Part shown: piece by piece, positions 22,231-47,300 of the stretch
How positions within the stretch are numbered: the stretch's first letter is position 1
Layout: each line of letters starts with the position of its first letter
Source: an uncultured Mycoplasmatota bacterium
GTDB taxonomy: Bacteria > Bacillota_I > Bacilli_A > RF39 > UBA660
Length of the DNA stretch: 64,000 nt
Assembly: GCA_946488855.1 (NCBI GenBank)
Contig: CAMLWC010000002.1
Location: forward strand, 7,292-71,291
Reading direction: 5' to 3'
Notes under the pieces: generated by a model
Databases searched by the model: none
What the model saw: the letters and a program-made list of their open reading frames with translations, nothing else
What the model was told of the DNA's origin: nothing
Position numbers and translations under genes: made by a program

Positions 22231-23442
22231 TTAAACTAATAAATTAGATTTAGATACAATAATAACAGGCACAACTTTACAACTATCAGTTTTTAAACCT
22301 TTATAATATTTTGAAGTATTATCGTCAATTTTTAGATATTGAAATGCACCATCATTATATTCATTATTAATCCAATAACAACTATTAGAAACTAAATAAC
22401 TAAAATTAGAATTATTAAATTTATAATATCCATCATTTGTGATTGCATAATTTAATTCATTATTTAATCTATCTTGATAATTTAAATTTCCAATTATAAC
22501 ATCTGATAAATTATTTCTTACTAAAACAGAATTATTAACATCTTTAGAAATAACAGATAATATATCACTCATTTCTAATGGTTTTGAAGTAACTTTCCAA
22601 TTTTTAGTTATTTGATTCATAGTAGTAGTATAATTTTCATATGTACTTACATCAAAGCCACTATTTAAATCAGGTAATAACTTAACTGTAGTATCACCTA
22701 CTTTATTTCTTGAATCAATTACATAAGTTTTTAAACAAAAAGCACTTACTTGATCACAAACTTTATTATTAATAACATCATACAAAACAACATCACCTAA
22801 ATTATAATTAGTGTCTGATGTTTCATTAGTAATCATCATTTGTTCTGCTTTTATTTCGATAACAACTTCTAAAGAAGATCTTATTTCATAATCAGGATTA
22901 GATTGTTTTTTTTGTTGTTCTTCCATATAAAATTGATATGCTTTATTTCCCCATTCACTATCTAATTCATCATTATTAGAATCAAGTGGCCATGATATAG
23001 AAACATTAAACTTACCACTATCACCATGGGCTAAAGCGTAATCTTTATCCAAACTCATATTAATATGAAATGGATAATCATGAGATAATTTATCTATTAA
23101 TTTCTCATTAGAATTATTATTTAAAACTTCATTTAAAACTCTAACTGATTTAATATTATAACTAATTTGAGCATCAGAATCTCCTAAATTAGATATATCA
23201 ACATCTTTAAATTCATTATCCATACCAGGATGAATATCTGATAATGAGATAACAATTTCATTTGAAACAACTTGTTCACCATTTTTAAATTCAATGTTCC
23301 AAGCTTTGATATCGACATCAACAGTAGCGCTTGATAAACCACTATAAGCAAACCAAGCTAAAGTAATAGAAACAAAAGAAATTGCAACAAAAAATAGCGA
23401 CATCAAATTTAATTTCAAAAATAATTTATGTTTTCTTTCCAC
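22231..23442 (-). CDS. Secreted TasA/camelysin-like protein with SipW-cognate-type signal peptide
   Basis: N-terminus K-rich, then hydrophobic, then ..SITLAWFAYS. The following segment LSDIHPGMDNEFKDVDISNLGDSDAQISYNI parallels TasA LSNLKPGDKLTKDFQFENNGSL. Last gene of the McrB-like unit. Confidence 0.5.
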   Translation of the reverse strand: MERKHKLFLKLNLMSLFFVAISFVSITLAWFAYSGLSSATVDVDIKAWNIEFKNGEQVVSNEIVISLSDIHPGMDNEFKDVDISNLGDSDAQISYNIKSVRVLNEVLNNNSNEKLIDKLSHDYPFHINMSLDKDYALAHGDSGKFNVSISWPLDSNNDELDSEWGNKAYQFYMEEQQKKQSNPDYEIRSSLEVVIEIKAEQMMITNETSDTNYNLGDVVLYDVINNKVCDQVSAFCLKTYVIDSRNKVGDTTVKLLPDLNSGFDVSTYENYTTTMNQITKNWKVTSKPLEMSDILSVISKDVNNSVLVRNNLSDVIIGNLNYQDRLNNELNYAITNDGYYKFNNSNFSYLVSNSCYWINNEYNDGAFQYLKIDDNTSKYYKGLKTDSCKVVPVIIVSKSNLLV

Positions 23443-23461
23443 TGTTACAACTCCTTTTCTT

Positions 23462-24025
23462 TTACGCTTTTTTTCTTCTTTTTTCTTCTTTTTCTAACAT
23501 AGTCATAAGTATTTCAGAACCAATAATATATAAAAGTGGTATAAATATTAGGAAAAACATTCCAAATTTTGTAGCAACTATTTTATATATAAATGATAAT
23601 ATTATGCATTTATATATAATTTTGCCATACACTTGATTTTCATAAACTATTGGATCTGGTGCATCATTGGCGATACCTTGTGTATGAAAAATATATTTTC
23701 CATCCTCATCTTGTTCGATATTAATAACTTCATGAGTTACAACTTTCCCAGCTAAAGTACCTTGCTTACCTAAATAAGAAATAGAATCTCCAATTTCAAT
23801 TTTAGATGGTTCAATCTCTTTAGCAATTAAAACGTCACCTATTTTATATTTTGGATCCATACTTCCAGAAACAACAGTAAACATTCTAAAACTTAAAAAT
23901 GATATTTTATTATTACTAAATCTTTGTAAAGCAACTACTAACAAAAATAAAATAATAAATATTGCAACAAATATATTTAAAATTGTTTTAATTATTTTAA
24001 AAGCTTTATTATTCATACTAACCAC
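23462..24025 (-). CDS. sipW: Signal peptidase I, SipW (ER/archaeal S26B) type
   Basis: TM helix, then VVSGSMDPKYKIGDVL (catalytic Ser box), VVTHEVI (His box), GIANDAPDP and a C-terminal TM. The track start is GTG at 24025; an alternative ATG is at 24016. Confidence 0.75.
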   Translation of the reverse strand: MVSMNNKAFKIIKTILNIFVAIFIILFLLVVALQRFSNNKISFLSFRMFTVVSGSMDPKYKIGDVLIAKEIEPSKIEIGDSISYLGKQGTLAGKVVTHEVINIEQDEDGKYIFHTQGIANDAPDPIVYENQVYGKIIYKCIILSFIYKIVATKFGMFFLIFIPLLYIIGSEILMTMLEKEEKRRKKA

Positions 24026-25149
24026 TACAAGTATTCTTGTGCCCTTTCTAAGTATTCTTCCATTGCATTTTTAAATTTTTTCTTAACATCATCCATACCA
24101 ACCAATCTTTCACTCTTATCTTTTTTTATTTCTTTAGCTATCATATTTAATAATTCTTCATCAGTTATTTCAATACCTGCACTTAATAATAAATCAACTA
24201 TTCTTCTTATTTCTTCCCTTAACAATAAAACTGCATTTTTAGCCATTTTTTTCTTTTGTTCTCTTTTAGAAGGAACTAAAGAATCTAAAACTAAATAATC
24301 TATTAAGAATGAATGATCCAAAAATCCTTTTAATACATCATTACCATTATCAGTATCATTTTCTTTTTTATCTTCATCATCTTCAAATTTTAATAAGTAT
24401 TCCCATAATTTAACAGCAATTCTAAAGTTAGGATTCTTTAAAATGATATTAGTTTTCTTAATTGGTGGCTTTATGAATGACACATGTGCTTTATCTAAAG
24501 CCTTATACATTTCACTTCTTTGCCAACTAGAAATATATTCTTTAATTCTTTTAATTCTAGCTTTGATTTTTTTAATTTCATCTTTAATTTTTTTGTCAAC
24601 TTTTGCAGTTGGTAAAGTTTCTGATGTAACTTTTAATTCAACATCTATTTTTTCAAAATCAGTTACTGTTTTAGCAGAATACTCTAATACTTTATCATCA
24701 CTTAATTCAAAATTATTAAGTAATTCTTCTTTTTCTAAAACAAATTTTAATAAAGAATCTATTAGAGTATAGAGAAACCTATTTTCATATATATTATAGG
24801 TTTCTTCATTTCTAACATCCAATATTTTTTTAGGTTCAACACTTTTAGTTTTCTTATCAACTTTATTAATATATTCAGTATGTTTACTCAAATCCTTGAT
24901 ACTTGCTACAGTAATTTTTTTAGACTTTTCAATTTTAACAGTATTTTCTTCTCTAATAAGAGCGATTTTAGGTTGTCTTACAATAATATCAATATATGGA
25001 CAAGCATCTTCTATTACATCAACCCAATCAAAAGATACTAAATTACCTTCATAATCAGATTTAAAAAACATTTCAGAACCTAATTTTTTTAAAAATATAT
25101 CAGTTCTATCTTTTACATCTTTTTCAACTTCACATTTAAAATTGTCCAT
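24025..25149 (-). CDS. McrC-N-terminal/DUF2357-like protein without recognisable nuclease domain
   Basis: 374-aa soluble ORF immediately downstream of the McrB-like gene. It contains NIYENRFLYTLIDSL, resembling the xENRF/LxK motif I associate with McrC/DUF2357 N-domains. I could not find a PD-(D/E)xK pattern. The C-terminal half is K/E-rich and helical. Confidence 0.4.
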   Translation of the reverse strand: MDNFKCEVEKDVKDRTDIFLKKLGSEMFFKSDYEGNLVSFDWVDVIEDACPYIDIIVRQPKIALIREENTVKIEKSKKITVASIKDLSKHTEYINKVDKKTKSVEPKKILDVRNEETYNIYENRFLYTLIDSLLKFVLEKEELLNNFELSDDKVLEYSAKTVTDFEKIDVELKVTSETLPTAKVDKKIKDEIKKIKARIKRIKEYISSWQRSEMYKALDKAHVSFIKPPIKKTNIILKNPNFRIAVKLWEYLLKFEDDEDKKENDTDNGNDVLKGFLDHSFLIDYLVLDSLVPSKREQKKKMAKNAVLLLREEIRRIVDLLLSAGIEITDEELLNMIAKEIKKDKSERLVGMDDVKKKFKNAMEEYLERAQEYL

Positions 25150-25166
25150 ATAATATCAACCCCTAA

Positions 25167-26696
25167 CTATATGCTTTTCTTAAGATTTTGTAAATATGCA
25201 ATACATTCTTTCATTACATCTTTACCAAATTTTTTATTCAAATAAGAAATAAATGGATCAATTTCATCTCTTAATAATGCAACACTTAATTGATCAAATT
25301 TTCTTAATATTTTTTTAGCAATAAAGTAATCAATTGCTTCTATTTCTTTACCACCACAAGCTACATAAACAGGAGTGAATACCCCTAATTGTTTCATAAT
25401 ACGATTACCAAAAGCAATTCTAAAATGTTCAATAACGTAATCATCTATTTCTCCAACATAATTTAATCCTTTATCAGATAATGGATATTTTTCAACTGCA
25501 TCAGCAAACAAACTGTCTAAATAACTTGAATTAATTTTTACTACATCCTGTTCACGACATTTAAATGGATCTACTTTAGTATTAATATCGATAGGCATAG
25601 CCCTATCATATACTTTATCAGTAACCATAAATGTTGAGTCATCATTATTAATAGTACCAATATACCAAAGATTTCCTGGTAATTTAATTTTTCCTTTAAT
25701 TAATTTTTTAGGATCATCTGGCCAAGCACTAGGAACTAAATCTACTAACCATTCATCACGACTAGGCATTTCAAGAATTGATAATAAATCTGCAAAATAA
25801 TATTCAACACGAGCTAAGTTCATTTCATCTAGAATAATTGTGTGAACATCATCATCAAATGAAGCAGCATATATTTCACCTAAAGCTTTAGTTTCATTGA
25901 ACTTTTTAGTAAATTCATTGAAATATCCTAAGAAATCTGATTTATCTCTCCAAGATGGTTCAACAGATGATACACAAGCATCCATACCCATAAATTTTCC
26001 CCAAGCATATGCTAAGGAAGTTTTACCTGTACCAGAGATACCTTGTAAAATAATTAACTTGCCACAAGCTAACCCACCAAAGAAAGGTCTTAAAATTGAA
26101 AAATCATAATATAAATGTAATTGACTAGCTGCAAAACATCTAAAATCATCAATTAATTGTGCTAAAGTTGTATCGTTTTCATATTTTTTAATTTTATAAC
26201 CTTCAAATTGTTCATCGATAGCCACCAATTTAGGAAATCTAATTCCTTTAATAGCAGCATCTTCTTCTTCAGGTTTTTCTTCTTCTTTATTTTCTTCAGT
26301 TTCTTCCTCAGGATTAATTCCTAATTGAGAAACTTTCATAGCCATTAATTCTTCTCTTTCTTTCATTAACTTTCTAACTTGATCATTTAAATTACCAATT
26401 TCAGTTAATAATTCATCTTTGCTTAAATTATTATTTAATTTTCTTATAATTTTTTTAACTAATAAGAAGATTAATAATGCTATTAATAAAACAATTATTA
26501 TTAAACAAACAACACACATAACAACAAATATTTTTTCATTACCATTAAAATTATCTTTATAACTTTCGATTATTTTAGCGTAATCACCAAAACTAAACAT
26601 CTGTTTAATACCATTAATAAATCCTTTAAAAGCATTAAACAATCCATCAAAAAAGATAGATATAAATTCGTAAAAAAATCTTAAAAATGTATTCAT
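25167..26696 (-). CDS. Membrane-anchored McrB-family AAA+ GTPase-like protein
   Basis: One TM helix (VVMCVVCLIIIVLLIALLIFLLV), a coiled coil and an acidic linker precede the AAA+ core. The core has Walker A GISGTGKTS, EPSWRDKSDFLGYFNEF, Walker B IILDEMNLARVEYYFADLLSILE and NLWYIGTINNDDSTF..YDRAMPIDI, paralleling the McrB GTMNxxDRS and RRF blocks. No DNA-binding N-domain. Confidence 0.7.
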   Translation of the reverse strand: MNTFLRFFYEFISIFFDGLFNAFKGFINGIKQMFSFGDYAKIIESYKDNFNGNEKIFVVMCVVCLIIIVLLIALLIFLLVKKIIRKLNNNLSKDELLTEIGNLNDQVRKLMKEREELMAMKVSQLGINPEEETEENKEEEKPEEEDAAIKGIRFPKLVAIDEQFEGYKIKKYENDTTLAQLIDDFRCFAASQLHLYYDFSILRPFFGGLACGKLIILQGISGTGKTSLAYAWGKFMGMDACVSSVEPSWRDKSDFLGYFNEFTKKFNETKALGEIYAASFDDDVHTIILDEMNLARVEYYFADLLSILEMPSRDEWLVDLVPSAWPDDPKKLIKGKIKLPGNLWYIGTINNDDSTFMVTDKVYDRAMPIDINTKVDPFKCREQDVVKINSSYLDSLFADAVEKYPLSDKGLNYVGEIDDYVIEHFRIAFGNRIMKQLGVFTPVYVACGGKEIEAIDYFIAKKILRKFDQLSVALLRDEIDPFISYLNKKFGKDVMKECIAYLQNLKKSI

Positions 26697-26699: not shown

Positions 26700-28742
26700 C
26701 TACTCTCCCCAATAACTTCCTATTTTACTTGCTATATCATCATAAGCAATTTTATTGTGTAATTCTTCTTTAATTGATGATAAAACATCAATTGATTCAA
26801 ACATTTTCCCTTTTACTCTTTTATCGACAAATATGTATTCCATTGCTTCAACAATACCTTGATCTTTTGCTTTAACTGCTGAAGTTTTTAAATCAACGGC
26901 AAATCTATATCCATCTTTAATTAATGATTTAATAACCTTTTTATTCTTTGATAATTCTTCATATTGCGCTAAAACAATAATATTATTTTTAGCATATTCA
27001 TCACCAAATAAATTAAATATTTTATCTAATTTATTAGATTTAGTATATAAACTTTCTGGTATATAGAATATATATTTTTTATTAAAATCAGCATTCAACA
27101 TATCTTTAACAACTTGTACCAATAATAATGTTAATAAAACTTCTATTTTATCTTCAGCAACAATGCCATCATAATATGTTTTATCTACAATATAATCACT
27201 ATATACTTTACTAAAATTGATATTATGATTTAGTTCAACAGCATAAGTATTTTTTATTGATAAACTATTATAATTTAATTCAAATAAACTTGTTTCTAAT
27301 TTTTCAATTGTTTCCTTAACAATAGATTTATAAGTTTTTTGAATTTTTAATATACTACTAATCATAGTATTCATTGTTTTTGGATCAACTTCAGTTCCAA
27401 TTAATTTAACCATCTTATTTTTATAAGTTTGTTTTTTTATTTTAGTATCATCAATAACTAGATAAGTGTGTTCTAAATGCATAATTAAAGTAAATATATT
27501 AGTGTATTTTTTAACCTTTTCACTATATTTATTATCAGTACCTTTATATACTTTAATCATTTTTTCTGCTGCTTCTTTTAATGCATTTTCAATTCTAGTA
27601 TTCATATTACGGCCATTATATTCAACATTGACATCTCCGCAATAATTATAATATTTACCATCAATATAAACACTCATAAAGTTTTCTCTAATCGTTGCTT
27701 CATTAGTTTTTAAAGTTTCATCATTATTTAAAACTTCAATAATTTCCTTTAATTCTTCTTCTTTCATAAACATAATTTTTTCGATTATATTTTTGAATTT
27801 TTTCTTTTTATTTTGTAACATTTCTAATTTTAATTCAACTTCAGCAACTTTAGGTTCTTCTTCTTTTTCTACAACGACTGGTTGTTCTTCTTCAATTTCA
27901 ATTTTTTTAGCATAAGCATTTTCGATTTCATCTTTATCAACTTGAATCATTCTAAAATACATAGTTTTATCTAAATCTTCTGCTTCTAAAGGTTTTAAAT
28001 CAGTAATTGTTTCATCAATTTTTTCATCTTTTACTTCTTCAACCTTAGTAACTTTTACTTCTTCATCTTCTTCTTTTATATTATTTTGAATTTTTTCTGG
28101 TTCTGATTTTTCTTTAATATATTCATCATTAACTATTTTTTTCTTATCCTTTTTAATTAATTTAATAATATTTTTTATAAATATTTTTATTTTTTTAACT
28201 ACATTTGCCATAAATACATCAAATTTCTTCATATCTTTTTCCTTCTTATTCTTCTTAATTGTTAATGTTACTAAATAAACAGTAATAATAATTGCAACTA
28301 AAACATAAGGATTAAATATTGTTTTTTTAAATATACCAAAAGCAGGTAATACTTTAACAACTTTTCCAACTATTTGTTCTTGTGTAATTGGATCATCCTT
28401 AGCATCATTAGCATCACCTTTAGTTACATAAGTACCTTGGTATGCCTCAATAACTCTATGAGTTATAAATTCACCATCTTGCTTAAATGTAATAATATCA
28501 TCTAATTTTATATTTTTAGAATACTTAACAACTATCCAATCACCAGGTTCAACTGCTTCACCCATACTTCCTGTTTGCACTTCAAATACAGAGTAACCAA
28601 AAAAACTAGAGTAATCATTACCTAATAATTTAACTTGGATATTGTTATATATAGAAATTAATAATACTATTCCAAAAATAAAAATCAAAATATTTAAAAT
28701 AATATTAGTAATTTTTTCTAATATTTTACCTTTATTTACCAT
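26700..28742 (-). CDS. SipW-type signal peptidase fused to a large cytoplasmic domain of unknown function
   Basis: The first roughly 160 residues are TM, then QTGSMGEAVEPGDWIVV, ITHRVIEA, TKGDANDAKDDP and a second TM, a complete S26B peptidase. About 520 further residues follow: a K/E-rich low-complexity stretch and then a roughly 330-aa globular part. Confidence 0.7.
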   Translation of the reverse strand: MVNKGKILEKITNIILNILIFIFGIVLLISIYNNIQVKLLGNDYSSFFGYSVFEVQTGSMGEAVEPGDWIVVKYSKNIKLDDIITFKQDGEFITHRVIEAYQGTYVTKGDANDAKDDPITQEQIVGKVVKVLPAFGIFKKTIFNPYVLVAIIITVYLVTLTIKKNKKEKDMKKFDVFMANVVKKIKIFIKNIIKLIKKDKKKIVNDEYIKEKSEPEKIQNNIKEEDEEVKVTKVEEVKDEKIDETITDLKPLEAEDLDKTMYFRMIQVDKDEIENAYAKKIEIEEEQPVVVEKEEEPKVAEVELKLEMLQNKKKKFKNIIEKIMFMKEEELKEIIEVLNNDETLKTNEATIRENFMSVYIDGKYYNYCGDVNVEYNGRNMNTRIENALKEAAEKMIKVYKGTDNKYSEKVKKYTNIFTLIMHLEHTYLVIDDTKIKKQTYKNKMVKLIGTEVDPKTMNTMISSILKIQKTYKSIVKETIEKLETSLFELNYNSLSIKNTYAVELNHNINFSKVYSDYIVDKTYYDGIVAEDKIEVLLTLLLVQVVKDMLNADFNKKYIFYIPESLYTKSNKLDKIFNLFGDEYAKNNIIVLAQYEELSKNKKVIKSLIKDGYRFAVDLKTSAVKAKDQGIVEAMEYIFVDKRVKGKMFESIDVLSSIKEELHNKIAYDDIASKIGSYWGE

Positions 28743-30595: not shown

Positions 30596-31642
30596 CTATT
30601 CATATCCTTGTGTATCTTTTAAGAAATTTAATGAAATATATATTTCAGCGCCATCAGAATCTGTTTCTAGACTATCAATATCTTGTCCTTCAATCCAAAC
30701 ATATACTCTTGTTTTAGTTATACCATCTGGTACAGTAAATAAAGGTTGTTCGAAATCTTCATCAGTCATTGTTTCTTGTAATTCAAAATAATTTGGATCA
30801 AGATTTGGTGAACCAGATACTGTATTAGCTACAAATATAGGACCACCTGCTCTTGTAAATGCATATGTTGGAAACTCTTGTCCATCAATTAAATTAACGC
30901 CATATTTAGTAGCTCTTTCAATAGATAAATCAGAATGTGCTTTACTATTTGGTTCAAAAATAATAGAATAACAATTATTATTACATTCAATATTTTGAAC
31001 TTCATCTGCTGATGCATCTTTAGCAACAGATCCTAACTTAACAATACCAATACGAGCAGAATTTAATAAACCAATCATTTCTTCATCTGCATCTTTTTCC
31101 ATTGTGATTGAAGTACCATATTCAAAATATAAATTATCACTTACTGGAGAACCAGAATCATTTTTGAAAAACAAATCAAATGCTATATAATTATTGTACT
31201 CATTTCTGCCACCTTCATGCATTAAATTAGTTCTTATATAACCATTATTTTTATCCTTATTTGGATATCTAACCCCACTACTTGAAAACATATTAAATAT
31301 CGGACTATCATGATTAGTAATTCCATTTGAAGAAATAGGTACTAATCCACCACCTGCCCATTGACTTGTATTATTAGGATAAGTATATCTTAATCCTCTT
31401 ATAAGTTCATCAGCAGATATAATTAAATCAGTATCAAAATTAATCCCATCTAAAGAAATAGATAATCCAGTATTCTTTTTAACCGTCATAGTAAATGTTT
31501 TTACTCTAACATTTAAATTGGTTGAAAACCACGCATATGTTGAAAAAATAAGCAAAATACCTACTAATACCATAATAGTGATAGTAACTTTTTTATTTGT
31601 TTTTTCGATAATTCTTTGTCTAAAAGTATTTTGTTTTTTCAT
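30596..31642 (-). CDS. Secreted 'STYAWF' family protein (divergent, short member)
   Basis: Signal region ..LLIFSTYAWFSTNLNVRVKTFTMTV. Shared family blocks include LSISLDGINF, GLVPISSNG, YIAFDLFFKNDSG, ARIGIVKLG and the C-terminal ITKTRVYVWIEGQDIDS. Confidence 0.55.
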   Translation of the reverse strand: MKKQNTFRQRIIEKTNKKVTITIMVLVGILLIFSTYAWFSTNLNVRVKTFTMTVKKNTGLSISLDGINFDTDLIISADELIRGLRYTYPNNTSQWAGGGLVPISSNGITNHDSPIFNMFSSSGVRYPNKDKNNGYIRTNLMHEGGRNEYNNYIAFDLFFKNDSGSPVSDNLYFEYGTSITMEKDADEEMIGLLNSARIGIVKLGSVAKDASADEVQNIECNNNCYSIIFEPNSKAHSDLSIERATKYGVNLIDGQEFPTYAFTRAGGPIFVANTVSGSPNLDPNYFELQETMTDEDFEQPLFTVPDGITKTRVYVWIEGQDIDSLETDSDGAEIYISLNFLKDTQGYE

Positions 31643-31665: not shown

Positions 31666-31692
31666 GAAGAGTAATTAACCAAATTACTCTTC
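31666..31692 (-). promoter_or_regulatory. Intercistronic hairpin between the 441-aa and 348-aa genes
   Basis: 11-bp perfect stem gaagagtaatt/aattactcttc with a 5-nt loop. Only a weak T-tract follows on the minus strand. Candidate partial terminator or mRNA-stabilising element. Confidence 0.45.
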
Positions 31693-35118: not shown

Positions 35119-35170
35119 ATTATAACATACATATTTTTTTTGTCAATATAATATGTCGATAATTGTCGAA
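35119..35170 (-). promoter_or_regulatory. Operon A promoter: TTGACA / TGn-TATAAT with two 0A-box-like heptamers upstream
   Basis: On the minus strand the -35 TTGACA is at 35141-35146, with a 16-nt spacer and TGT-TATAAT (-10 at 35119-35124). On the plus strand TGTCGAT is at 35154-35160 and a perfect TGTCGAA at 35164-35170, 10 bp apart. The whole block is duplicated at 47354-47405. Confidence 0.6.
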
Positions 35171-36000: not shown

Positions 36001-36022
36001 AAACACAATTTTTATTGTGTTT
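36001..36022 (-). terminator. Hairpin terminator after the 177-aa gene
   Basis: 9-bp stem aaacacaat/attgtgttt with a 4-nt loop. T-tracts lie on both sides, so it may act bidirectionally. Confidence 0.5.
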
Positions 36023-37960: not shown

Positions 37961-40900
37961 CTATCTAACAATAAATTTCTTTTCGATTGTTCCTATTTTA
38001 GTTGTACCATCATACAATTCAAATACAAATTTGTAACCACCTAACATATTTTTAATTTCTAATTTATTAGGTAATTCATAAATGTTATCAGTTATTTTAT
38101 TTAATTTTGTATTAGTATAACTACTTAAATCAACTAATGAATAATCTTGATTATAAGCTGATAAAACTTGTTTTTTATATAATGAAACTCTTACAGTTGG
38201 ATTAGTAAAATTACCAGTTTTAATTATATCAAAATTAATTATATTGTCTGTTATAACATTATCAAATGATACATCAAATCCATAATCAATTGTAACATTG
38301 TTAGTTACTGTTACTGGAACAGTTATTTCATTACTATATGTATTAGCATATTTTCCATCGTAAGATGAAAGTGCTTTTATTTTAAAATAATAACTTCCTG
38401 TTTTTAATTTACTATTATCAGCTGAAGTAGTTATTTCTAAATTACCAATATCAGGTATTCTAACTATACCATCATTACTTGGTGAGTATTCTTTTCCATT
38501 TATTTTAAATGTTAAATTTTTCAAATATTCCTTATTCACTATATTTCCATTTTTATCAACTAAACTAATATTTAATCCCATTATTTTATCTTCATAAGTT
38601 GTATCATTTATTTGATTTCCATTTATAAAATCATATACTAAATTACTTGTAATATCAATTGTATTAGTAGAATCACTATTATAAATAATTGTGTCACTAT
38701 AATTGGTACTAATATTTATACTAGCACTACTTTCATAAATATTAAATGGTTTTAAAGTAGTTGTTAAAGTTTTAATTACACTATCCTGATTATTTAATTC
38801 CATAGCTATTTTAATATCTTCAATATTAGTTATATCAGTATTCTTAAAATCTAAAACAATAGTAAAATTCTCATTTATTTGATTTGTATAATTATCTTCA
38901 CTAAATAAATTATCGCTACCTACTTCTTTAAATAAAGTTAAATTATAAATTGTATCTTGTTTGTCAACTGTATATGTATATACTCTATTTTGATTGTTAT
39001 CAATTAAAGTTATTTTTGTATTAAGTGGTAAAGAAGTATTAGATACAATACTATGTGTTTTTCCTTCGTTATAATTATAACTTGATTGATAACTTACATT
39101 CAAAGTAACAGATGATTTATTTGTTATATAATTTGTAGTAAATTTATTATTTCTACCAGCGCTTAAACTATCAATACTATAACCATCAAATATTATATAT
39201 TCACTATTAACATAAGTAATATAATCAGCATTATCAATTACTTTAACATATAAAATATAAGTACCTTTATTATTAATAGTTATTTTATCATTATAAGTAT
39301 TCCAACTAACACTATCTAATTTATCTTCATTTATTATTTCATTAGATAAATAATATTCAACACTTTTAATACCAGATAAATTATCAATAGCAGTTATTGT
39401 TAAATCAGTATTTTCATTTATATAATTTTTAATAGTTGGATTATTTAAAGTATTCCAATTCTTGTCATTCATATTAATAGTAACATCAGAACCAGATAAA
39501 TCCACTATAATTAAATCAGAATTTAAATAATAGATATTATCATTATTATCGACTACTTTAACATATATAACATATTTTCCTTCATTATTCAAATCAACTA
39601 TACTTTCGTAATTAGTAAAAGTTAAATTAAGTATTTCTTCTTTTGTTAACTCTTTATCACTAATATAATAACTAACTTCTTTAAATGGTCTTAATGGATC
39701 AATTTGTTCGATACTAAAAGCAGTTGTCTTATTAAACTTAATTGAATTTAATTCATATCCTAAATTATTCCATGAATATGTTCCTACATGAATATTAGCA
39801 ATTGGATTATTTATATCGTCAGTAGCTAATATAGGAAAACTTCCTTCTTCATAAACCCAAACATTTTCTGCGTTATTAGCCAAATCTGTACTATCAATAA
39901 ATTCATTAAATTGTAAATTATTGATAACAAAATCTTTATCTTTTAAATTATTAACATCTGTTAAAGTAACACTTCCAAATATACTTCCTTGATTTGTTAT
40001 ATTACCATCAGTATAATATGAATTATTAAAACTAACAACACTACTTATAATAGAATTTACTAAATATGTTGTTTCTGTAGCAAAAGAATTATTAATAGTT
40101 AAATTACCATTTGTAACATTATTAATTAAATGAGTAACATTACCTGTACTATAAACTTTATTTAGTGTTCCTTTACCATGAAGTTTATTAATTAATCCAG
40201 ATGTTTTATCACCTGATAATGTTCCATTATTATAAGATTTATTAATTGTAATATCATTAGTATATCCTACTAAACCAACACTATTTTTACCTATAACATT
40301 AGCTTTATTGATAACATTATTTAAAGTAATTTTATCAGCCTTAGCAACTATTCCACTACTAACACCATAATTATAAGTTACATCATAAGTTAAATTATCT
40401 AATTTTATATTAGTATCTATAACTATTTTACTAATATTTCCTAAATCGAGACTAAAATTACCACTTACTTCATTATTATTAATTTTTATTTTATTTTCAC
40501 CAATACTACCTTTAATTGTAACATTAATTATATCACCCTTTATATAAGGAATCATTATATTAGAAAAATTAGATATTGTAGGAACATTAAATGTTTCTGT
40601 TTTAGTTAATTCTTCATTAGTACCAACTACATAACCATTATATAAAACATTAGTTATTTTAGAATTAGTGGCACTGGATGCAATTCCAGCAGTAATGTTA
40701 CCACCATAAATCATAGCATTTTCAACATACAAATTACTTACATTACCACTTAAATTAGTAAATAAACCTACTTCTTCATTTTCACTAGAAATATATAATC
40801 CATATATTCTAAAATAATTACCATCTAAATTACCCTTAAAATTATTTAAAGATTCAAATAAATTAATAGTTTTTATTTTAGTACCAGTTTTATCTACATT

Positions 40901-41290
40901 ATCATATATTTCATTAGTATTTTCTTTTATATAAAATGTTGTATTATTTAATTTGTATTTAATACCTTCTTCATCATAACTAAATGTACCATCATTTAAA
41001 ACAATATCCTTATTTAATTCAAAATATGTATCAGCATAATCAGTAGTTTTTAACATTTGTGCAAAATAAGCTAATTCATTACCATTAGAAATAATATAAG
41101 GATCATCAATTGTACCACTACCACTTCGATAACTAGTAGCTACATTGCCATCCCAAACTTCAATATCTTTGATAGTATTTCTATTTTTATAGCGCGCTAA
41201 ACTAGGTATCATAATAGAACAAACTAATATTAAACCTAAAATTAAAATTAAATAATTCTGCTTAGGTATTCTTTTCAACAAATTTTTCAT
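37961..41290 (-). CDS. Large (1109 aa) surface/fibre-associated protein: beta-helix-like N-terminal region plus tandem Ig-like repeats
   Basis: Signal ..VCSIMIPSLARYKNRN, then GSGTIDDPYIISNGNELAYFAQML, typical of the start of parallel beta-helix adhesin-like proteins. Two roughly 100-aa repeats are present (..VSYYISDKELTKEEI..GKYVIYVKVVDNNDNIYYLNSDLIIVD and ..VEYYLSNEIINEDKL..GTYILYVKVIDNADYITYVNSEYIIFD). No LPXTG motif. Confidence 0.55.
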   Translation of the reverse strand: MKNLLKRIPKQNYLILILGLILVCSIMIPSLARYKNRNTIKDIEVWDGNVATSYRSGSGTIDDPYIISNGNELAYFAQMLKTTDYADTYFELNKDIVLNDGTFSYDEEGIKYKLNNTTFYIKENTNEIYDNVDKTGTKIKTINLFESLNNFKGNLDGNYFRIYGLYISSENEEVGLFTNLSGNVSNLYVENAMIYGGNITAGIASSATNSKITNVLYNGYVVGTNEELTKTETFNVPTISNFSNIMIPYIKGDIINVTIKGSIGENKIKINNNEVSGNFSLDLGNISKIVIDTNIKLDNLTYDVTYNYGVSSGIVAKADKITLNNVINKANVIGKNSVGLVGYTNDITINKSYNNGTLSGDKTSGLINKLHGKGTLNKVYSTGNVTHLINNVTNGNLTINNSFATETTYLVNSIISSVVSFNNSYYTDGNITNQGSIFGSVTLTDVNNLKDKDFVINNLQFNEFIDSTDLANNAENVWVYEEGSFPILATDDINNPIANIHVGTYSWNNLGYELNSIKFNKTTAFSIEQIDPLRPFKEVSYYISDKELTKEEILNLTFTNYESIVDLNNEGKYVIYVKVVDNNDNIYYLNSDLIIVDLSGSDVTINMNDKNWNTLNNPTIKNYINENTDLTITAIDNLSGIKSVEYYLSNEIINEDKLDSVSWNTYNDKITINNKGTYILYVKVIDNADYITYVNSEYIIFDGYSIDSLSAGRNNKFTTNYITNKSSVTLNVSYQSSYNYNEGKTHSIVSNTSLPLNTKITLIDNNQNRVYTYTVDKQDTIYNLTLFKEVGSDNLFSEDNYTNQINENFTIVLDFKNTDITNIEDIKIAMELNNQDSVIKTLTTTLKPFNIYESSASINISTNYSDTIIYNSDSTNTIDITSNLVYDFINGNQINDTTYEDKIMGLNISLVDKNGNIVNKEYLKNLTFKINGKEYSPSNDGIVRIPDIGNLEITTSADNSKLKTGSYYFKIKALSSYDGKYANTYSNEITVPVTVTNNVTIDYGFDVSFDNVITDNIINFDIIKTGNFTNPTVRVSLYKKQVLSAYNQDYSLVDLSSYTNTKLNKITDNIYELPNKLEIKNMLGGYKFVFELYDGTTKIGTIEKKFIVR

Positions 41291-41361: not shown

Positions 41362-41464
41362 TCTTTTGCACTATGTTTCAACTAATTTATATAAATAATT
41401 AGTTGGAAAAATTATTTAATAAATTATTTCTTTCATAAAATAAATTTTGAAAGGAGGTAATAAA

Positions 41465-42439
41465 ATGACAAATATAGAACTCAAAAATAAATTATTAGAT
41501 ATAGTTAATAATTATAAAACAATTTATGGTATGGGCACTTGGGGTTGGATAGTAACGAAATCAGCTATTGAAAGAAAGAAAAAAGAAAGCTCTTGGTGGA
41601 CAACTTCTAGGATTAATACTATTTCTAAAGTAATTGATAAAAATTATTTCATGTTTGATTGTATTGGATTAATTAAAGGTATACTATGGGGTTGGAACGG
41701 AAATAGTAAAGCAATATATGGTGGTGCTGGATATAATATAAATAAAGTTCCTGATGTAAATACTGAAGGTATGCTTGCTAAATGTACTAATGTTTCAACT
41801 AATTTTAAAACCATAGAAATTGGAGAATATTTATGGATGAGTGGTCATTGCGCTATTTATATTGGTGATGGATTATGTGTTGAATGTACTCCAAAATGGA
41901 CTAACAATGTTCAAATAACTGCGGTAGCAAATATAGGCAATAAAAAAGGTTATAATTCCAGAAATTGGACTAAGCATGGAAAATTACCTTATATTACCTA
42001 TTTAAAAGAAGAAAGTAAAACTTATAAAATAATTGTTGAAAAAATACCAACATACACTAATTCAGAAAATGCAAAAAATAAAAAAAATCCAATCGGTACA
42101 TATAAAAAAGATACTTATTTTATTTTTAACGAAGCAAATGGTATGATCAATATTACTAAAATAAAAAATACTCCAGGTGCTTGGATTAATCCTAATGACA
42201 ATATAATTAAAGAAAATATAGAAAATCCAATTGAAGAAACACCAGTTTCTCCTGAAATGCCGGTTGAACCTGAAATACCTATCGATGTTGAAATACCTAT
42301 TGAAGAACCTAATACTACACCACCAATTGAAACACCAGAAGAATCAATTGAAGAAAATCCTGATGAAAATAAAGAAAACATTTTTATTAGAATTTTCAAA
42401 TTAATTATCAATTTCATATCTAATTTATTTAAAAAATAA
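41465..42439 (+). CDS. NlpC/P60-like cell-wall hydrolase with Pro/Glu-rich linker and C-terminal hydrophobic helix
   Basis: AAAGGAGG RBS before the ATG at 41465. Cys box FDCIGLIKG, His box GHCAIYIGDG. PE-rich tract PIEETPVSPEMPVEPEIPIDVEIPIEEPNTTPPIETPEES. Terminal FIRIFKLIINFISNLF. Confidence 0.55.
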   Translation: MTNIELKNKLLDIVNNYKTIYGMGTWGWIVTKSAIERKKKESSWWTTSRINTISKVIDKNYFMFDCIGLIKGILWGWNGNSKAIYGGAGYNINKVPDVNTEGMLAKCTNVSTNFKTIEIGEYLWMSGHCAIYIGDGLCVECTPKWTNNVQITAVANIGNKKGYNSRNWTKHGKLPYITYLKEESKTYKIIVEKIPTYTNSENAKNKKNPIGTYKKDTYFIFNEANGMINITKIKNTPGAWINPNDNIIKENIENPIEETPVSPEMPVEPEIPIDVEIPIEEPNTTPPIETPEESIEENPDENKENIFIRIFKLIINFISNLFKK

Positions 42440-42605
42440 TAGAACAAAAATCAAATAAATTTGACTGCATCTAATCTCACGATTAGATATTTCTCCTTCT
42501 TTGGTGGCTTTCGCGTTTTCCTCTAGAGACTAATTTCCGATAGTTGCTACCGTACTTGTTTTTATTTTATCTTTTTTTGCAGTGAAATTTTTCGAGGTTT
42601 GTTCA
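42440..42605 (-). ncRNA. Putative omega-RNA scaffold / right end of tnpB element, copy 2
   Basis: Non-coding tail nearly identical to 2597-2760, e.g. the shared ttgactgcatctaatctcacgatta and agagactaatttccgatag. Confidence 0.5.
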
Positions 42606-43748
42606 TGTAAACAACTTAGTATTATTTATTAACCCTTCCCACATTATATTTATTGCCGCATTTATATCTCTATCATTTTCATTTTTGCATTTTGAACATG
42701 TCCAGTTTCGTTTGCTTAAGTCTTTAATTTCTTCATTTTTAGTATTGCAATGACTGCATATTTGACTACTTGGATAATATGTATCTATTTGATAAAAATG
42801 TTTATTTTTCCATTTACTTTTATACTCTAATTGTCTTATTATTTCGCTTAAACTTGCATCACTTATATATTTGGACATTTCTTTTCTTTCTATTAATTTT
42901 TTTGTTTGTAGTTTTTCGGTTATTATTAAGTCGTTTTCATTCACTATTTTTTTTGTGATTTTATGTATTGTATAAATTCTAGCATTTTTTAGTTTCTTAT
43001 ATGTTTCCTTTATTTTGTTTTTCACTTTATAATAATTTTTACTTCCTTTTACTTTTTTACTTAACCATTTTTGTAAATTTTTTATTCTTTTTTCATATTT
43101 GGTTATGTATTTTTTATTTTCATATTTTTCGCCGAAACTTGTTATTACTAAATCTTTTACTCCTAAGTCTATTCCTACTACCTTTGTTGGTATTATATTT
43201 TTTTCTTCTAAATCTTCCTCATATAATACTGATACATAGTATCTATTTATTTTTTTACTTATTGTAGCGTTTATTATTCTTCCTTTTATTTCTTTTGTTT
43301 TTCGATAGCCTCTTATTTTCATATTCTTTAATTTTGGTAAGGTAATTGTTTTATTTGTCATATCCAATTTAATATTTTCATATATCTTATTTTTATAATT
43401 ATTTTTTATATAGTTTGTACGATAACTATTTTTACTATATTTATCTTTATATTTTGGATAATGTTTGGTTCTATAAAAATTTTTAAAAGCTTCTTCCAAA
43501 TCAAATATAGTAGTTGATAGTGCCATACTATCTATCTCAGTTAACCATGGATACGTTTGTTTTAAAAGTGGTAATTCTTTTATACAATCTTTTTTTGTTT
43601 TAGTTATTTTGTTTTGTTTATATAATTTTTCTTTTTCATATAACATTGTATTATAAATAAATCTAGTACATCCTAAAGTTTTATTTATTAATTCTTGTTG
43701 TATTTTATTTGGATATAATCTAAATTTATATGTTTTATATATCTTCAT
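42603..43748 (-). CDS. tnpB: TnpB (IS605 OrfB) RNA-guided nuclease-family protein
   Basis: 381 aa from the ATG at 43748 (GGTGGTGA RBS). MKIYKTYKFRLYPN N-terminus, VGIDLGVKDL (RuvC-I), Zn finger CSHCNTKN..CSKCKNEN, DRDINAAINI (RuvC-III). Confidence 0.9.
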   Translation of the reverse strand: MKIYKTYKFRLYPNKIQQELINKTLGCTRFIYNTMLYEKEKLYKQNKITKTKKDCIKELPLLKQTYPWLTEIDSMALSTTIFDLEEAFKNFYRTKHYPKYKDKYSKNSYRTNYIKNNYKNKIYENIKLDMTNKTITLPKLKNMKIRGYRKTKEIKGRIINATISKKINRYYVSVLYEEDLEEKNIIPTKVVGIDLGVKDLVITSFGEKYENKKYITKYEKRIKNLQKWLSKKVKGSKNYYKVKNKIKETYKKLKNARIYTIHKITKKIVNENDLIITEKLQTKKLIERKEMSKYISDASLSEIIRQLEYKSKWKNKHFYQIDTYYPSSQICSHCNTKNEEIKDLSKRNWTCSKCKNENDRDINAAINIMWEGLINNTKLFT

Positions 43749-43843
43749 TGTATCACCACCATAATAAAATTTTACTATACACACATATGTTTGTCAACAC
43801 ATTTATTTAAAATTTTGCAAAGAACTTTCCTAGTATATAAAAA

Positions 43844-43872: not shown

Positions 43873-45189
43873 TTATTCATTTGTTGTTGGAACATCTGGT
43901 CCATCATAATCAGGGAAATCTGATTGATTATATCTTTCTTTAGTGAATCCAAAATTAATAGTAATTTTCTTTCCTAATGAAGCAAAATCATAGTTATCAA
44001 TATCTTGTCCTTCAATCCATACATAAACTCTTAATTTAGTAATACTATTTGGAGCTAACGTCATAAATTGTGGACGATCTTTGCCTTCAACATTTTTCAT
44101 TGTATCAGTAAAGTATGGGAATTCAATTAATTTCATTGCACCTTTTTGTCCCGGATCAGTTCCTTCTGCAGCAGCATTGTATTCTGCTAATGTATTAGTA
44201 TTAGCTGTATAACTATTATAAGCTGTACCATCGTAAATATTAACATTATCAGCAATACCAATTGTTCTACTAATAGCATATGTTGGATAAGCAGTTGTTG
44301 TATTTAATGTTTTACATGGTGTAGCATCAGTATAAGATGCACTTGAATTAACATCTGCACCTGTTCTTTTTAAACAAGATTCATTATACCAATTAATAGC
44401 ATTTTGTACGTGTTTAGTATCATTTGGTTCCCAAATTTGAGCATCTCTACAAATACCTGTAACATGTTCTGGATCATCATCATCATCTAAACTATCAGCA
44501 CAAGTCATACTTGTTACTAATTTTTGATTTTTTGGTACATCTGTATCTAAAGCAGCACTTACACGACCTAATTGAACAAATCCAACTCTTACTGAATTTT
44601 CAATACCAGCTTTACCTTCACCATCTAAAGCAACTGTAACAGCTGAATTAGTATTTAAATAAATTGCTTCTTCATTTAAAACATTATTTTCTGGATAATA
44701 AGGATTTCCTGATAAGTTCTTAACAAATAAGTCAAATGCTATATATCCATCACCTTCAACATATTCTTTTGAACTAGTTGTTCCACCTACTTGTTTAGTA
44801 TGATTATCAACTTGACTAGATAATAATCTATAACCACCAGTAACAGCAGTTAAACTTCCTTTTTCATATAATTTCATTCTTGATGAAGTTGCATCCATTT
44901 CACCAATTGAAGACATTGGAATTAATCCTTGTTTTTCTTGATCTAGCCATTGATTTGCATTTCCTTCATAAGCAGTTGCATTTTTAGCGTCTAATGTATA
45001 AACCCAATCCTTACCATCCATAGATAAGAATAACCCTTCTGTTGTTGCAATATTAATATCGAATTCTGTTACATTAACAGTTTTCATACCTATAAACCAT
45101 GCATAAGTTGAAACTGATAATAAAATAGCACATAAAGCACAAAGAGTAATCAGATTTCTTACTTTTTGATTTTTCTTTCTTCTTTTCAT
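43873..45189 (-). CDS. Secreted 'STYAWF' family protein, operon B copy (paralogue of 31704-33029)
   Basis: VRNLITLCALCAILLSVSTYAWFIGMKTVNVTEF and the same blocks (AGIENSVRVGFVQLGRV, IWEPNDTKHVQNAINWY, ITKLRVYVWIEGQDIDNYDFASLGKKITINFGFTKE). Confidence 0.6.
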   Translation of the reverse strand: MKRRKKNQKVRNLITLCALCAILLSVSTYAWFIGMKTVNVTEFDINIATTEGLFLSMDGKDWVYTLDAKNATAYEGNANQWLDQEKQGLIPMSSIGEMDATSSRMKLYEKGSLTAVTGGYRLLSSQVDNHTKQVGGTTSSKEYVEGDGYIAFDLFVKNLSGNPYYPENNVLNEEAIYLNTNSAVTVALDGEGKAGIENSVRVGFVQLGRVSAALDTDVPKNQKLVTSMTCADSLDDDDDPEHVTGICRDAQIWEPNDTKHVQNAINWYNESCLKRTGADVNSSASYTDATPCKTLNTTTAYPTYAISRTIGIADNVNIYDGTAYNSYTANTNTLAEYNAAAEGTDPGQKGAMKLIEFPYFTDTMKNVEGKDRPQFMTLAPNSITKLRVYVWIEGQDIDNYDFASLGKKITINFGFTKERYNQSDFPDYDGPDVPTTNE

Positions 45190-45199: not shown

Positions 45200-46594
45200 C
45201 TAATTTATTGTCCATATATCATCTACTCGCGTAGCTGTTTTAACTACTCCACCATCTTTAAATGTAAATTTAGTCATCCAATTTGGTAAAGTAAATTCTT
45301 TTTTATCATTGTCATAAGTAATTTTTGAATTTGAAATATCAGTTATTTCACCAGTATTAACATAAGATACTGTTTGGTCTCTAACTACATCATCTGGTAA
45401 TTCTGGATCACCATCATAATCGATATCTTCTCCATAGAATCTTTCTTTAGTAAATCCAAATGATACAGAGATCTTTCTTCCTAACGAAGCAAAATCATAG
45501 TTGTCTATATCTTGTCCTTCTATATAAATATAGATTCTTACCTTAGTAATACTATTTGGAGCAAGTGTTATAAAATCAGGTCTATTAACTCCTTCATTAA
45601 ATTTATCAGTATCAGTAAAGTAATCTACTTTGTATAATTTACCTTTTTGATATGAACTTGCTATTGAATTTGTATAGCCGTTATATTCATAGCCATCATA
45701 CACATCAACTTGATCTGTATAATCAATTTCACCACTTACTGCATAAGTTGGATAATAAACTCCATCTTTAATAGTTTTACAAGGTCCACTAAATGAAGCA
45801 GGATTAGTTATATCACTGCCAATTCTTTTACGACATGATGTTGTATACCAACTAATAGCATTAGTAACATGTTTGGTGTCATTAGGTTCCCAAATTTGAG
45901 CATCCCTATCAGCACATATACCAGTAACATCATCATTTGATTTACAAGTAATGCCTGTAATAACATCAACATCATCTTCTACTGCTATAACACGTCCAAT
46001 TTGTGCAAAAGCCACTCTTACTGAATTTTCAATACCAGCCTTTATTTCGCCATCTTCAGCAACTTTTACTTCTGATTCTGGATCTAAATAAATTGCTTCT
46101 TCATTTTTAGGGTTTAATTCTTTATAATATGCATGACCTGATTTATTTTTAATAAATAAATCGAACGCAACATATCCATCAACCTCTTTGGCACCAGTAT
46201 TTTTTACTCTTGCAGCCATTACACGATAACCACCAGGTGATGCTGTAAAACTTCCTTTTTCATACATTATAAGTCTTGATGAGCCAGTATCAATCTTACC
46301 AACTGATGAAACAGGAACTAATCCTTTGCCACCCCAACTGTTAGTGTTTCCAGGATAACTTACAGTTTTATGATTTTTTTCATTAATAGTTACTGTTGTT
46401 TCCCAATTTTCTCCATCTAATGATAATAATAAACTATCAATAGCAGCAATGGAAACATCAAAACTAGAAACATTAACAACCTTCATACCAATAAACCATG
46501 CATAAGTTGAAACGGTTAGAATAATCGTACATAAAACAGCAGCAACAAGTAATTTCTTTACTCTTGTTTCATGTTTTTTCTTACGTCTTCTCAT
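45200..46594 (-). CDS. Secreted 'STYAWF' family protein, operon B copy with C-terminal extension (paralogue of 33094-34338)
   Basis: Start moved to the ATG at 46594 (GAAGGGA RBS, 13 nt after the upstream stop). LCTIILTVSTYAWFIGMKVVNV and the same blocks. An extra roughly 60-aa tail (..VSYVNTGEITDISNSKITYDNDKKEFTLPNW..). Confidence 0.6.
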   Translation of the reverse strand: MRRRKKKHETRVKKLLVAAVLCTIILTVSTYAWFIGMKVVNVSSFDVSIAAIDSLLLSLDGENWETTVTINEKNHKTVSYPGNTNSWGGKGLVPVSSVGKIDTGSSRLIMYEKGSFTASPGGYRVMAARVKNTGAKEVDGYVAFDLFIKNKSGHAYYKELNPKNEEAIYLDPESEVKVAEDGEIKAGIENSVRVAFAQIGRVIAVEDDVDVITGITCKSNDDVTGICADRDAQIWEPNDTKHVTNAISWYTTSCRKRIGSDITNPASFSGPCKTIKDGVYYPTYAVSGEIDYTDQVDVYDGYEYNGYTNSIASSYQKGKLYKVDYFTDTDKFNEGVNRPDFITLAPNSITKVRIYIYIEGQDIDNYDFASLGRKISVSFGFTKERFYGEDIDYDGDPELPDDVVRDQTVSYVNTGEITDISNSKITYDNDKKEFTLPNWMTKFTFKDGGVVKTATRVDDIWTIN

Positions 46595-46607
46595 AATCCC
46601 TTCTTTC

Positions 46608-47300
46608 TTATTCTGCAACTATTGGTTTAAAATTCATACGAACTTTAAATTCACCACCTAAAATATTATCAGTACAATCAGGATCTTCGCCTTCAATCCA
46701 TAAAACTATTGTATACTTGTCAATATCGTTAGGTTTAAAATTAGTAACATCTTCACTCATGATTATCTTATCATCAATAAATGGAACTGTATTTGGTTCT
46801 ACTTCTCCTTCACTTGATAATTTTGCATAAGTTTGATATTCTCCATTCTTATAAATTCTAACTCTGATGGCAGCATCAACATCCTTGATAACATCATCGA
46901 TAATAACCTCTCTAGTATAACCAGCAACTTCATCTCCAGTATTTTCAATATAAAATGTATATACTAAATAACTATCGCCATTATGTGATCCACCTTCATA
47001 ATCTTTGATTTCTTCCGGTAACCATATTTCCTTGATACTGTTAAAAGTTTCAGGTGCTTTAGCTAATAATTCTGTACGATATACTTTATATTGAAAATCG
47101 TCATAAATAATTATGCCATTATCTAAATAAAGATTTTTATCGAGTGTTATGCTAAAATTACCACTATTATAAACAATACCTATTACAAAATATAAAATAA
47201 GTAAAAGCAAAAGTAATAATATCACAGCTAGTTTAAATTTTTTCTTGAGTTTTTTTTCTTTTTTTAATTTATCGGTAGTTTTAGTAAATTTACTTTCCAT
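46608..47300 (-). CDS. Signal-anchored small fibre-locus protein (paralogue of 34358-35053)
   Basis: IGIVYNSGNFSITLDKNLYL.. and DIDKYTIVLWIEGEDPDCTDNILGGEFKVRMNF. First gene of operon B. Confidence 0.5.
   Translation of the reverse strand: MESKFTKTTDKLKKEKKLKKKFKLAVILLLLLLLILYFVIGIVYNSGNFSITLDKNLYLDNGIIIYDDFQYKVYRTELLAKAPETFNSIKEIWLPEEIKDYEGGSHNGDSYLVYTFYIENTGDEVAGYTREVIIDDVIKDVDAAIRVRIYKNGEYQTYAKLSSEGEVEPNTVPFIDDKIIMSEDVTNFKPNDIDKYTIVLWIEGEDPDCTDNILGGEFKVRMNFKPIVAE

Follow-up and report, generated by a model that had tools for sequence, protein, structure and literature searches.

A locus of 20 open reading frames (ORFs) at 22.2-47.3 kb of the 64-kb stretch of DNA analyzed here (the window; positions 7,292 to 71,291 of contig CAMLWC010000002.1, assembly GCA_946488855.1, from an uncultured Mycoplasmatota bacterium) probably encodes a single export and surface-assembly system in which SipW-type processing is coupled to an McrBC-like GTPase, a reading to which we give a probability of roughly 0.8. 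The gene content, catalytic residues, motif conservation, synteny, and promoters on which it draws are directly observed. The ORFs were labeled A to T by ascending coordinate, transcription runs from T to A, and only K and P are encoded on the plus strand. The window is evenly AT-rich (G+C ~24%), the locus having the same composition as its flanks. A preliminary description of this DNA had listed SipW-type peptidases and secreted proteins in the region; its inventory omitted the McrB-like D and McrC-like C genes that lie between the peptidases, the TnpB gene Q, and the rearranged and partly duplicated state of the locus.

Signal peptidases B and E and pseudo-peptidase L

The locus is predicted to encode two catalytically intact SipW-type peptidases (B and E) and one conserved pseudo-peptidase (L), in agreement with the three paralogs, one of them degenerate, noted previously. 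B (23462-24025) passes the TIGR02228 profile for archaeal-type signal peptidase I (79.6 bits; cut-off 51.85). Residues 1-165 of E (26700-28742) match Peptidase_S24 above cut-off, and the profile of this N-terminal family matches human SEC11C and SEC11A (9e-6 and 4e-5, respectively). The catalytic serine (SGSM/TGSM), histidine (T-H-E/R-V), and aspartate (GDAN; G-D/I-A-N) are kept throughout the B and E orthologs, which assigns both to the Ser-His(-Asp) rather than the Ser-Lys type. L (36022-36555) scores 21.3 bits against TIGR02228, below the cut-off, and is recognized as a homolog of B by profile comparison (HHalign probability 95.5%). Its orthologs retain a topology in which a single domain is flanked by two transmembrane (TM) segments, while the catalytic serine and histidine are gone in every genome; L is therefore not an active member of the peptidase family.

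Beyond its second TM segment, E continues through an acidic linker into a conserved domain of ~370 amino acids (aa), which is predicted to be cytoplasmic because of the positive-inside rule applied to the TM topology. Residues ~300-680 of E carry an invariant HNxxFSKVYSxYIxxKTYxxGxxAEDK block.

A membrane-anchored McrB-like GTPase and its McrC-like partner

D (25167-26696) is an McrB-like AAA+ GTPase by similarity, matching the PADLOC candidate-defense model PDC-M26A (2.8e-36) and Escherichia coli McrB (6HZ4) in the PDB (3e-3), with weak matches to AAA_5 in 7 of 9 D orthologs. The Walker A (GISGTGKTS) and Walker B (IILDEMN) motifs are present. The triplet N350-N351-D352 is invariant and is followed by D or E, a pattern that, in an ungapped alignment to E. 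coli McrB alone, is compatible with NxxD as well as NxD. The N-terminus of D opens with an invariant MNTFxRFFYEF, followed by one strong TM segment (residues 50-88) and then by a heptad-rich stretch, ELLTEIGNLNDQVRKLMKEREELM. C (24025-25149) matches DUF2357, the McrC N-terminal domain, above cut-off at 1.8e-11; no nuclease domain was matched in Pfam, and the C-terminal half of the protein is helical and charged. The preliminary description had termed the locus autonomous; if this is taken to mean that no nucleoside triphosphatase is part of it, the term does not apply, a membrane-anchored McrB-type GTPase and an McrC-like partner being among its conserved core parts.

F (28838-30448), a 536-aa protein that is soluble by TM prediction, is a conserved system member with 58 orthologs in the fetched loci. 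The predicted TM topologies put the E C-terminal domain, D, C, and F all on the cytoplasmic side of the membrane. A degenerate EAL domain was considered for the E C-terminal domain and F and found no support in searches of Pfam, the PDB, and PHROGs, which returned no match.

Exported proteins and their predicted cleavage motif

Within the first 70 residues, exactly 10 of the 67 ORFs of at least 100 aa in the window show an uncharged hydrophobic stretch followed by the motif [ST][YL][AS]x[FY]; this window-wide scan recovered the same ten ORFs that had been singled out before as carrying a SipW-cognate signal, and no others. The motif stands after the hydrophobic segment, not before it, obeys the -3/-1 rule with small residues, and places an aromatic residue at P2', so that cleavage is predicted from the sequence at this point. 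An aromatic P2' residue is reported to make TasA SipW-dependent (PMC10269814). Each orthologous family keeps its own version of the motif: STYAWF in G, H, I, R, and S; (I/V)(T/S)LAWF in A; (N/S)TYS(R/K)Y in K; usually TYSx(F/Y) in N; commonly (T/S)(L/Y/F)AKY in M; and usually PSLA(R/K)(Y/F) in O.

The major exported subunits, all with STYAWF signals, are H (31704-33029), I (33094-34338), and their respective paralogs R (43873-45189; 67% identical to H by BLASTP) and S (45200-46618; 66% identical to I). The same signal is found in G (30596-31642), a member of the H/I family that shares 28-30% identity with H and I and is single copy in all lineages. H has 2961 homologs in the protein collection, none of them named. 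H and I are conserved along their full length, with a mean column identity of 55% and four conserved cysteines, and residues 34-46 of H are invariant.

J (34358-35053) and its paralog T (46608-47300; 60% identical to J) carry a TM segment, at residues 17-49 in J, and no cleavage motif; both look uncleaved and are candidate base or anchor subunits. Their likeness to H and I is weak and confined to the C-terminus (8e-4 between I and T by BLASTP; 19-25% by HHalign), and with this proviso the two anchored relatives mentioned in the preliminary description are indeed TM-anchored.

The remaining exported proteins are more diverse. A (22231-23442) is a 403-aa protein with an ITLAWF signal and an N-terminal part that weakly resembles N and TasA, K (35356-35967, plus strand) is a conserved 203-aa protein with an NTYSRY signal, usually encoded at the far end of the system, and M (36565-37422; 285 aa, FTLAKY signal) and N (37415-37951; 178 aa, VTYSMF signal) are candidate minor subunits. 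The N-terminal part of M is related to N at an HHalign probability of 96% with the signal included and of 1.5% without it. O (37961-41290), a 1109-aa protein with a PSLARY signal, is a candidate tip adhesin and gave a weak, sub-threshold match to an OmpL47-type β-barrel domain. A common fold of the secreted families was considered and dropped: HHalign probabilities among them were high as long as the signals were included and no more than 25% without them, and since the similarity is largely signal-driven, a common fold is not claimed.

Searches of the secreted proteins against Pfam, NCBIfam, and PDB sequences returned no significant match, and TIGR04088 was absent from the results. An LPXTG-like C-terminal motif was found in none of the 21 proteins searched, and at 22.2-48 kb no Pfam or NCBIfam match was obtained to a sortase or to type IV pilus components (PilB-type ATPase, PilC platform, prepilin peptidase). 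Scans against Pfam, NCBIfam, and PHROG likewise returned no phage structural families. The reported lack of sortase/LPXTG, type IV pilus, and phage structural parts was thus borne out by these scans.

Relationship to TasA

The preliminary description had interpreted the locus as a multi-subunit fiber machine of the TasA superfamily. No window protein matches PF12389 (TasA/camelysin) at E ≤ 0.01. Sub-threshold matches occur in 21 of 43 N orthologs (best 2.5e-5), and K orthologs gave none. When a TasA/CalY reference profile built from 111 genuine PF12389 proteins was compared by HHalign, N reached a probability of 90.8% (E = 1.2e-6; 57% without the signal), a broad set of N-like proteins 87.9%, A, in which the likeness lies in the N-terminal part, 48.7%, K 24%, and M 12%, while G, H/R, I/S, J/T, and O scored only 0.2-1.4%. 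Of the five PDB matches of the N profile, those ranked second and third were the TasA structures 5OF1 and 8AUR, which align over the LSNLKPGD motif at a non-significant E of ~0.9, and one N ortholog is named "TasA family protein" by NCBI. The structure model of N, with a predicted local distance difference test score (pLDDT) of 84, is a jelly-roll sandwich. Taken together, these profiles make N a probable remote relative of TasA/CalY.

The N-like proteins are a large separate family, with 926 clusters at 50% identity that lie mostly outside PF12389. An attempt to link N transitively with PF12389 by way of remote N-like proteins was abandoned, just 2 of 71 representatives matching PF12389, and a metagenome scan with a single remote N-like protein found nothing. 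Two members of this family (database proteins P0302 and P0367) combine an N-like exported domain with a SipW-like peptidase in a single ORF, a Rosetta-stone link between the enzyme and the family presumed to supply its substrates.

The model of H is confident (pLDDT 82, predicted template modeling score 0.82), and Foldseek returned nothing for it at E ≤ 0.001 in the PDB or BFVD; its weak fold matches are to capsid-like or glycosidase-like jelly-rolls. On the profile evidence, the system is tied to the TasA world by its signal class and by one or two minor proteins, and its main building blocks appear to be something else. Of the earlier interpretation, the large, single SipW-centered system stands, with a fiber as its most likely product; the TasA likeness is limited to N and, weakly, A, and a machine of the TasA superfamily is not supported, the abundant, strongly promoted subunits G/H/I/R/S and the anchors J/T scoring 0-1% against the TasA profile.

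Conservation and synteny

Relatives of the system were found in 74 loci of a genome scan, mapped by tblastn of all window proteins, and in 80 loci fetched from a metagenome set with the GTPase D as query. According to the records of the metagenome-assembled genomes, the carriers are uncultured Bacilli, Mollicutes, or Tenericutes of the human and animal gut and rumen; one locus is 99% identical to the window. The parts of the system stay linked across more than 100 metagenomic loci, with GTPase identities down to 47% and varied gene orders. Across genome and metagenome loci alike, then, the comparison upholds a locus conserved as one system, and on the strength of this linkage the region is considered one co-inherited system.

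The recurrent gene order is J-(I/S)-(H/R, 1 to 6 copies)-G-F-O-N-M-L-E-D-C-B-A, K being encoded on the opposite strand. A rearranged order, T-S-R / O-N-M-L / K / J-I-H-G-F / E-D-C-B-A, is found in the window and in the closely related L001-L005; since T-S-R is 60-67% identical to J-I-H, the duplication is old. The window and more than 30 other loci have E directly upstream of D and B directly downstream of C. In loci whose D is 47-57% identical, D-C still occurs with J and E- or B-like peptidases, L being found in most of them. Within this range the 51-57% group also contains N/M/K/A-like and H/I/G-like genes in different orders, and ORFs neighboring the system in the distant loci begin with TYAWF, TYSKY, or TFSRY signals. 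G, F, O, N, M, and L are single copy almost without exception. The major-subunit genes of the H/S type vary between genomes from 2 to 6 tandem copies (e.g., L013, L015, L044, and L073), reminiscent of variable major pilin sets.

Expression signals

Perfect extended -10 promoters (TTGACA-16-TG-TATAAT, 12 of 12 positions) precede both modules of anchor and major-subunit genes on the minus strand, at 35146..35119 for J-I-H and at 47381..47354 for T-S-R. Both are of the sigma-70 type and sit within ~90 bp of conserved sequence that includes a TCGACA-N4-TCGACA direct repeat just upstream of each -35 box (35154-35169 and 47389-47404). The 64 kb contain no exact sites beyond these two (0.11 expected by chance). 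This candidate operator is conserved upstream of J and T in close relatives only (L001-L007). A terminator-like hairpin with an 11-bp stem (31666..31692, minus strand) stands directly 3' of H. Promoters and hairpin together form the pattern that would be expected if structural subunits were made abundantly and transcription read through at a lower level into the genes for minor and assembly proteins.

Insertions and flanking elements

Two genes within the locus are regarded as insertions because some close relatives lack them at the corresponding site. P (41447-42439, plus strand) is a strain-specific, endolysin-like cell-wall hydrolase matching the phage family phrog_3513 (2.5e-14); an 80% identical copy occurs in L001, and none occurs in L002 and L003. 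P may be what remains of a phage, or an enzyme co-opted to open the wall. Q (42603-43784), a TnpB of the IS200/IS605 type that lies between R and P and outside the core system, is absent at this site in L001-L003. Adjoining the edge of the locus, U (47388-48050) is a thermonuclease homolog (1.9e-23); the cell-wall hydrolase and edge nuclease of the preliminary description are accounted for by P and U.

Further remnants lie elsewhere in the window. A truncated, near-identical TnpB copy is found 39 kb from Q (3263-3934, minus strand), next to an ORF at 4011-4853 (minus strand) that is paralogous to one at 19644-20423 (minus strand); the latter matches PADLOC PDC-S18 (8.8e-9), and the former is alike by eye. 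Serine-recombinase-like ORFs at 4995-6577 (minus strand) lie close to the TnpB fragment and suggest that 3-6.6 kb holds the remains of an old mobile element. A penicillin-binding-protein-like ORF of 333 aa (20612-21613, minus strand) ends soon after its STFK motif and may have been truncated by a neighboring insertion.

Proposed mechanism and alternative explanations

From the features described above we infer cleavage, polymerization, individual subunit roles, and coupling to the GTPase, as follows. At least ten pre-proteins would be exported through Sec and stay anchored in the membrane through their signal peptides until B and E release them at (S/T)-(Y/L)-(A/S)|x-(F/Y). The freed, invariant N-terminal segment could then serve as an inter-subunit strand, as in TasA, which reportedly polymerizes by exchange of its new N-terminal strand; in H this segment covers residues 34-46, and a pLDDT below 50 for residues 28-38, modeled as unstructured in the monomer, is compatible with strand exchange and is not evidence for it. 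The paired subunits H and I, duplicated as R and S, are predicted to form a shaft on the uncleaved membrane anchor J or T, with G, A, K, M, and N as minor or adaptor subunits and O as a distal adhesin. The dead peptidase L may bind signal peptides without cutting them and so act as a chaperone or platform. On the cytoplasmic face, the task of gating or powering processing and assembly would fall to the GTPase D, the McrC-like activator C, the E C-terminal domain, and the soluble F. McrC is known to activate the McrB GTPase (summarized in PMC11090510).

A surface filament, either a pilus or a fiber, is somewhat favored as the product. The fullest version of this proposal, which we put forward tentatively and consider less likely than not, is an uncharacterized class of Gram-positive filament in which subunits of a new fold, SipW-type cleavage, and a membrane anchor are combined with an exapted McrB-type GTPase hexamer acting via the cytoplasmic domain of a peptidase fusion and with a dead peptidase as chaperone. 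Such a machine would be functionally analogous to type IV pili and built entirely from unrelated parts, and would serve abundant uncultured Bacilli of the gut as their main surface organelle.

Several observations weigh against the proposal. McrBC relatives are normally defense systems, and we know of no GTPase that drives a Gram-positive fiber. No filament has been seen, and the organism is uncultured. The major subunits show no detected similarity to TasA, pilins, or solved or viral predicted structures, and donor-strand polymerization is for this reason an analogy only; the secreted families as a whole possibly lack a shared fold once their signals are set aside. Even the N model matches generic jelly-rolls (CBM4, MAM, Eph-LBD), TasA not being among the 50 matches listed. 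On the cytoplasmic side, the E C-terminal domain and F matched nothing in Pfam, the PDB, or PHROGs, and the D N-terminus has no DivIC/FtsB match in Pfam at E ≤ 1, leaving homology to FtsB undetected by this route.

Among the alternatives, the one that fares best, though we think it unlikely, is a non-filamentous surface structure, such as an S-layer-like coat, a matrix, or anchored adhesins or enzymes, whose processing by the SipW-type peptidases is timed by the GTPase module. The new fold of H, with neither a pilin nor a TasA match, would suit such a structure, as would its weak likeness to capsid-like or glycosidase-like jelly-rolls, the very strong promoters, which are a feature of S-layer genes, and the full-length conservation of H and I, with its 55% mean column identity and four cysteines, which is unusual for surface fibers. 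The layout of the locus is nonetheless pilus-like, comprising a membrane anchor with related C-terminal strands, small minor proteins, a giant adhesin-like protein, and variable numbers of major-subunit genes, and both N, which is TasA-like, and the cleavage site, which is of the TasA type, point to fibers built by strand exchange.

An anti-phage or conflict system is improbable. Here a relative of type IV restriction would act through a membrane-linked effector, with the exported proteins as barrier, decoy, or triggered effectors, a reading consistent with the matches of D to PDC-M26A (2.8e-36) and to McrB in the PDB, with the presence of a PDC-S18-like gene ~1.8 kb downstream of A, and with the predicted defense role of CoCoNuT relatives in the same GTPase clade (PMC11090510). 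Set against these are the lack of a nuclease domain match in C and the TM anchor that D carries instead of a DNA-binding domain; in addition, the ~20 kb of exported structural proteins are unlike known defense effectors, the locus is syntenic across genera as a chromosomal core rather than a variable island, and Bell et al. predict pilus assembly.

Far less probable still is the chance juxtaposition of a TasA/SipW-type matrix operon and an McrBC-type island: the E-D-C-B-A and J-I-H-G-F blocks can be read as separate units and mobile-element genes (Q and P) lie inside the region, but D-C is flanked on both sides by peptidases of the system (E upstream and B downstream) and remains linked to homologs of J, L, N/M/K/A, and H/I/G through rearrangements and down to 47% identity, on which ground coincidence is rejected. 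The least probable reading of all, cargo of a prophage or conjugative element in the form of a mating pilus or phage-like particle, is suggested by the endolysin-like gene and TnpB within the region and a recombinase remnant elsewhere in the window, and is opposed by the absence of PHROG matches in all 9 system proteins scanned, by the lack of a relaxase, type IV secretion system, capsid, portal, or terminase gene, by the absence of P and Q from close relatives that retain the system, and by a GC content uniform with the flanks; like coincidence, it is rejected on grounds of synteny.

A single export and surface-assembly system in which SipW-type processing is coupled to the GTPase is thus the reading we retain. 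Strongly promoted and 20-25 kb long, the locus probably specifies a major surface structure of never-cultured gut bacteria, and such a structure would give access to adhesion, host interaction, enrichment, or imaging. If the proposal is correct, it would provide the first McrBC-family GTPase in protein export or assembly and a new type of Gram-positive fiber system in addition to simple TasA operons and to the sortase and type IV pili.

Comparison with known systems

The closest known counterpart is a large clade of McrB-like GTPases with an NxD motif that Bell et al. (eLife 2024, PMC11090510) named CoCoPALM in one paragraph, deferring its description. The features given there are an NxD GTPase with an FtsB-like TM and coiled-coil extension, a DUF2357 McrC homolog that is often nuclease-less and has a coiled coil, genes of the signal-peptidase family, and a predicted role in pilus assembly (PMC11090510). 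The present locus shares the NxD McrB-like GTPase, the adjoining DUF2357 McrC homolog, and the signal-peptidase genes; the invariant triplet of D with D or E after it agrees with the account in PMC11090510. The N-terminal TM segment and heptad-rich stretch of D are compatible with the TM and coiled-coil extension, and FtsB homology of D was not reproduced with Pfam. Judged by sequence, the region is a system of the CoCoPALM kind. The text of PMC11090510 mentions no CoCoPALM cargo, subunit families, pseudo-peptidase, anchor, or signal motif, no CoCoPALM detail was found in its supplementary text, and a follow-up paper was not found. All detail on the exported proteins given here is accordingly new, and the cargo list, cleavage motif, anchor, and pseudo-peptidase make the CoCoPALM prediction directly testable. 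SipW-type fiber loci and the CoCoPALM name are thus known; the fold of the major subunits, as modeled, is predicted to be new.

The tapA-sipW-tasA locus of Bacillus subtilis and the sipW-tasA/calY locus of Bacillus cereus resemble the system in having a peptidase of the ER type beside its substrates, small residues at -3/-1, an aromatic P2' residue, no sortase, and one small subunit, here N, that is remotely TasA/CalY-like. Operons of the sipW-tasA/calY/bsaA type, the relatives known in most depth, comprise 3-6 genes compared with ~20 here, a difference in scale that the preliminary description had already pointed out. Unlike tapA-sipW-tasA, the present system has major subunits of 350-470 aa with an unmatched fold, two active peptidases and a dead one by prediction, a membrane anchor, and a cytoplasmic GTPase module.

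In Clostridium perfringens, oligomers of the TasA-like BsaA are reported to be membrane-anchored and to need some type IV pilus-associated genes for efficient secretion (PMC11580942). The sipW-bsaA-bsaB-bsaC locus of this anaerobic Firmicute shares with the present system a SipW-dependent, TasA-like polymer anchored in the membrane and not the wall. The helper there is a separately encoded type IV pilus system, whereas here it would be an McrBC-derived GTPase encoded within the locus. By analogy, the C. perfringens case may serve loosely as a precedent for separate machinery assisting the export of a SipW-type fiber.

With type IV pili and type II pseudopili the resemblance is one of logic only: membrane-held precursors, a dedicated peptidase, major and minor subunits, and a cytoplasmic hexameric NTPase would be common to both. 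Unlike type IV pili, the locus has no PilB/PilT ATPase, PilC platform, or prepilin peptidase, and cleavage on the outer side of the hydrophobic segment, as by type I signal peptidases, would remove the hydrophobic helix that type IV pili keep. Sortase-dependent pili differ in their LPXTG signals and sortase, neither of which was matched here. From the type IV restriction system McrBC, the module has kept the AAA+ GTPase fold with its signature motifs and the DUF2357 partner encoded directly downstream; unlike McrBC, it shows no DNA-binding domain and no PD-(D/E)xK nuclease, its GTPase is predicted to be anchored in the membrane, and its genomic context is one of protein export.

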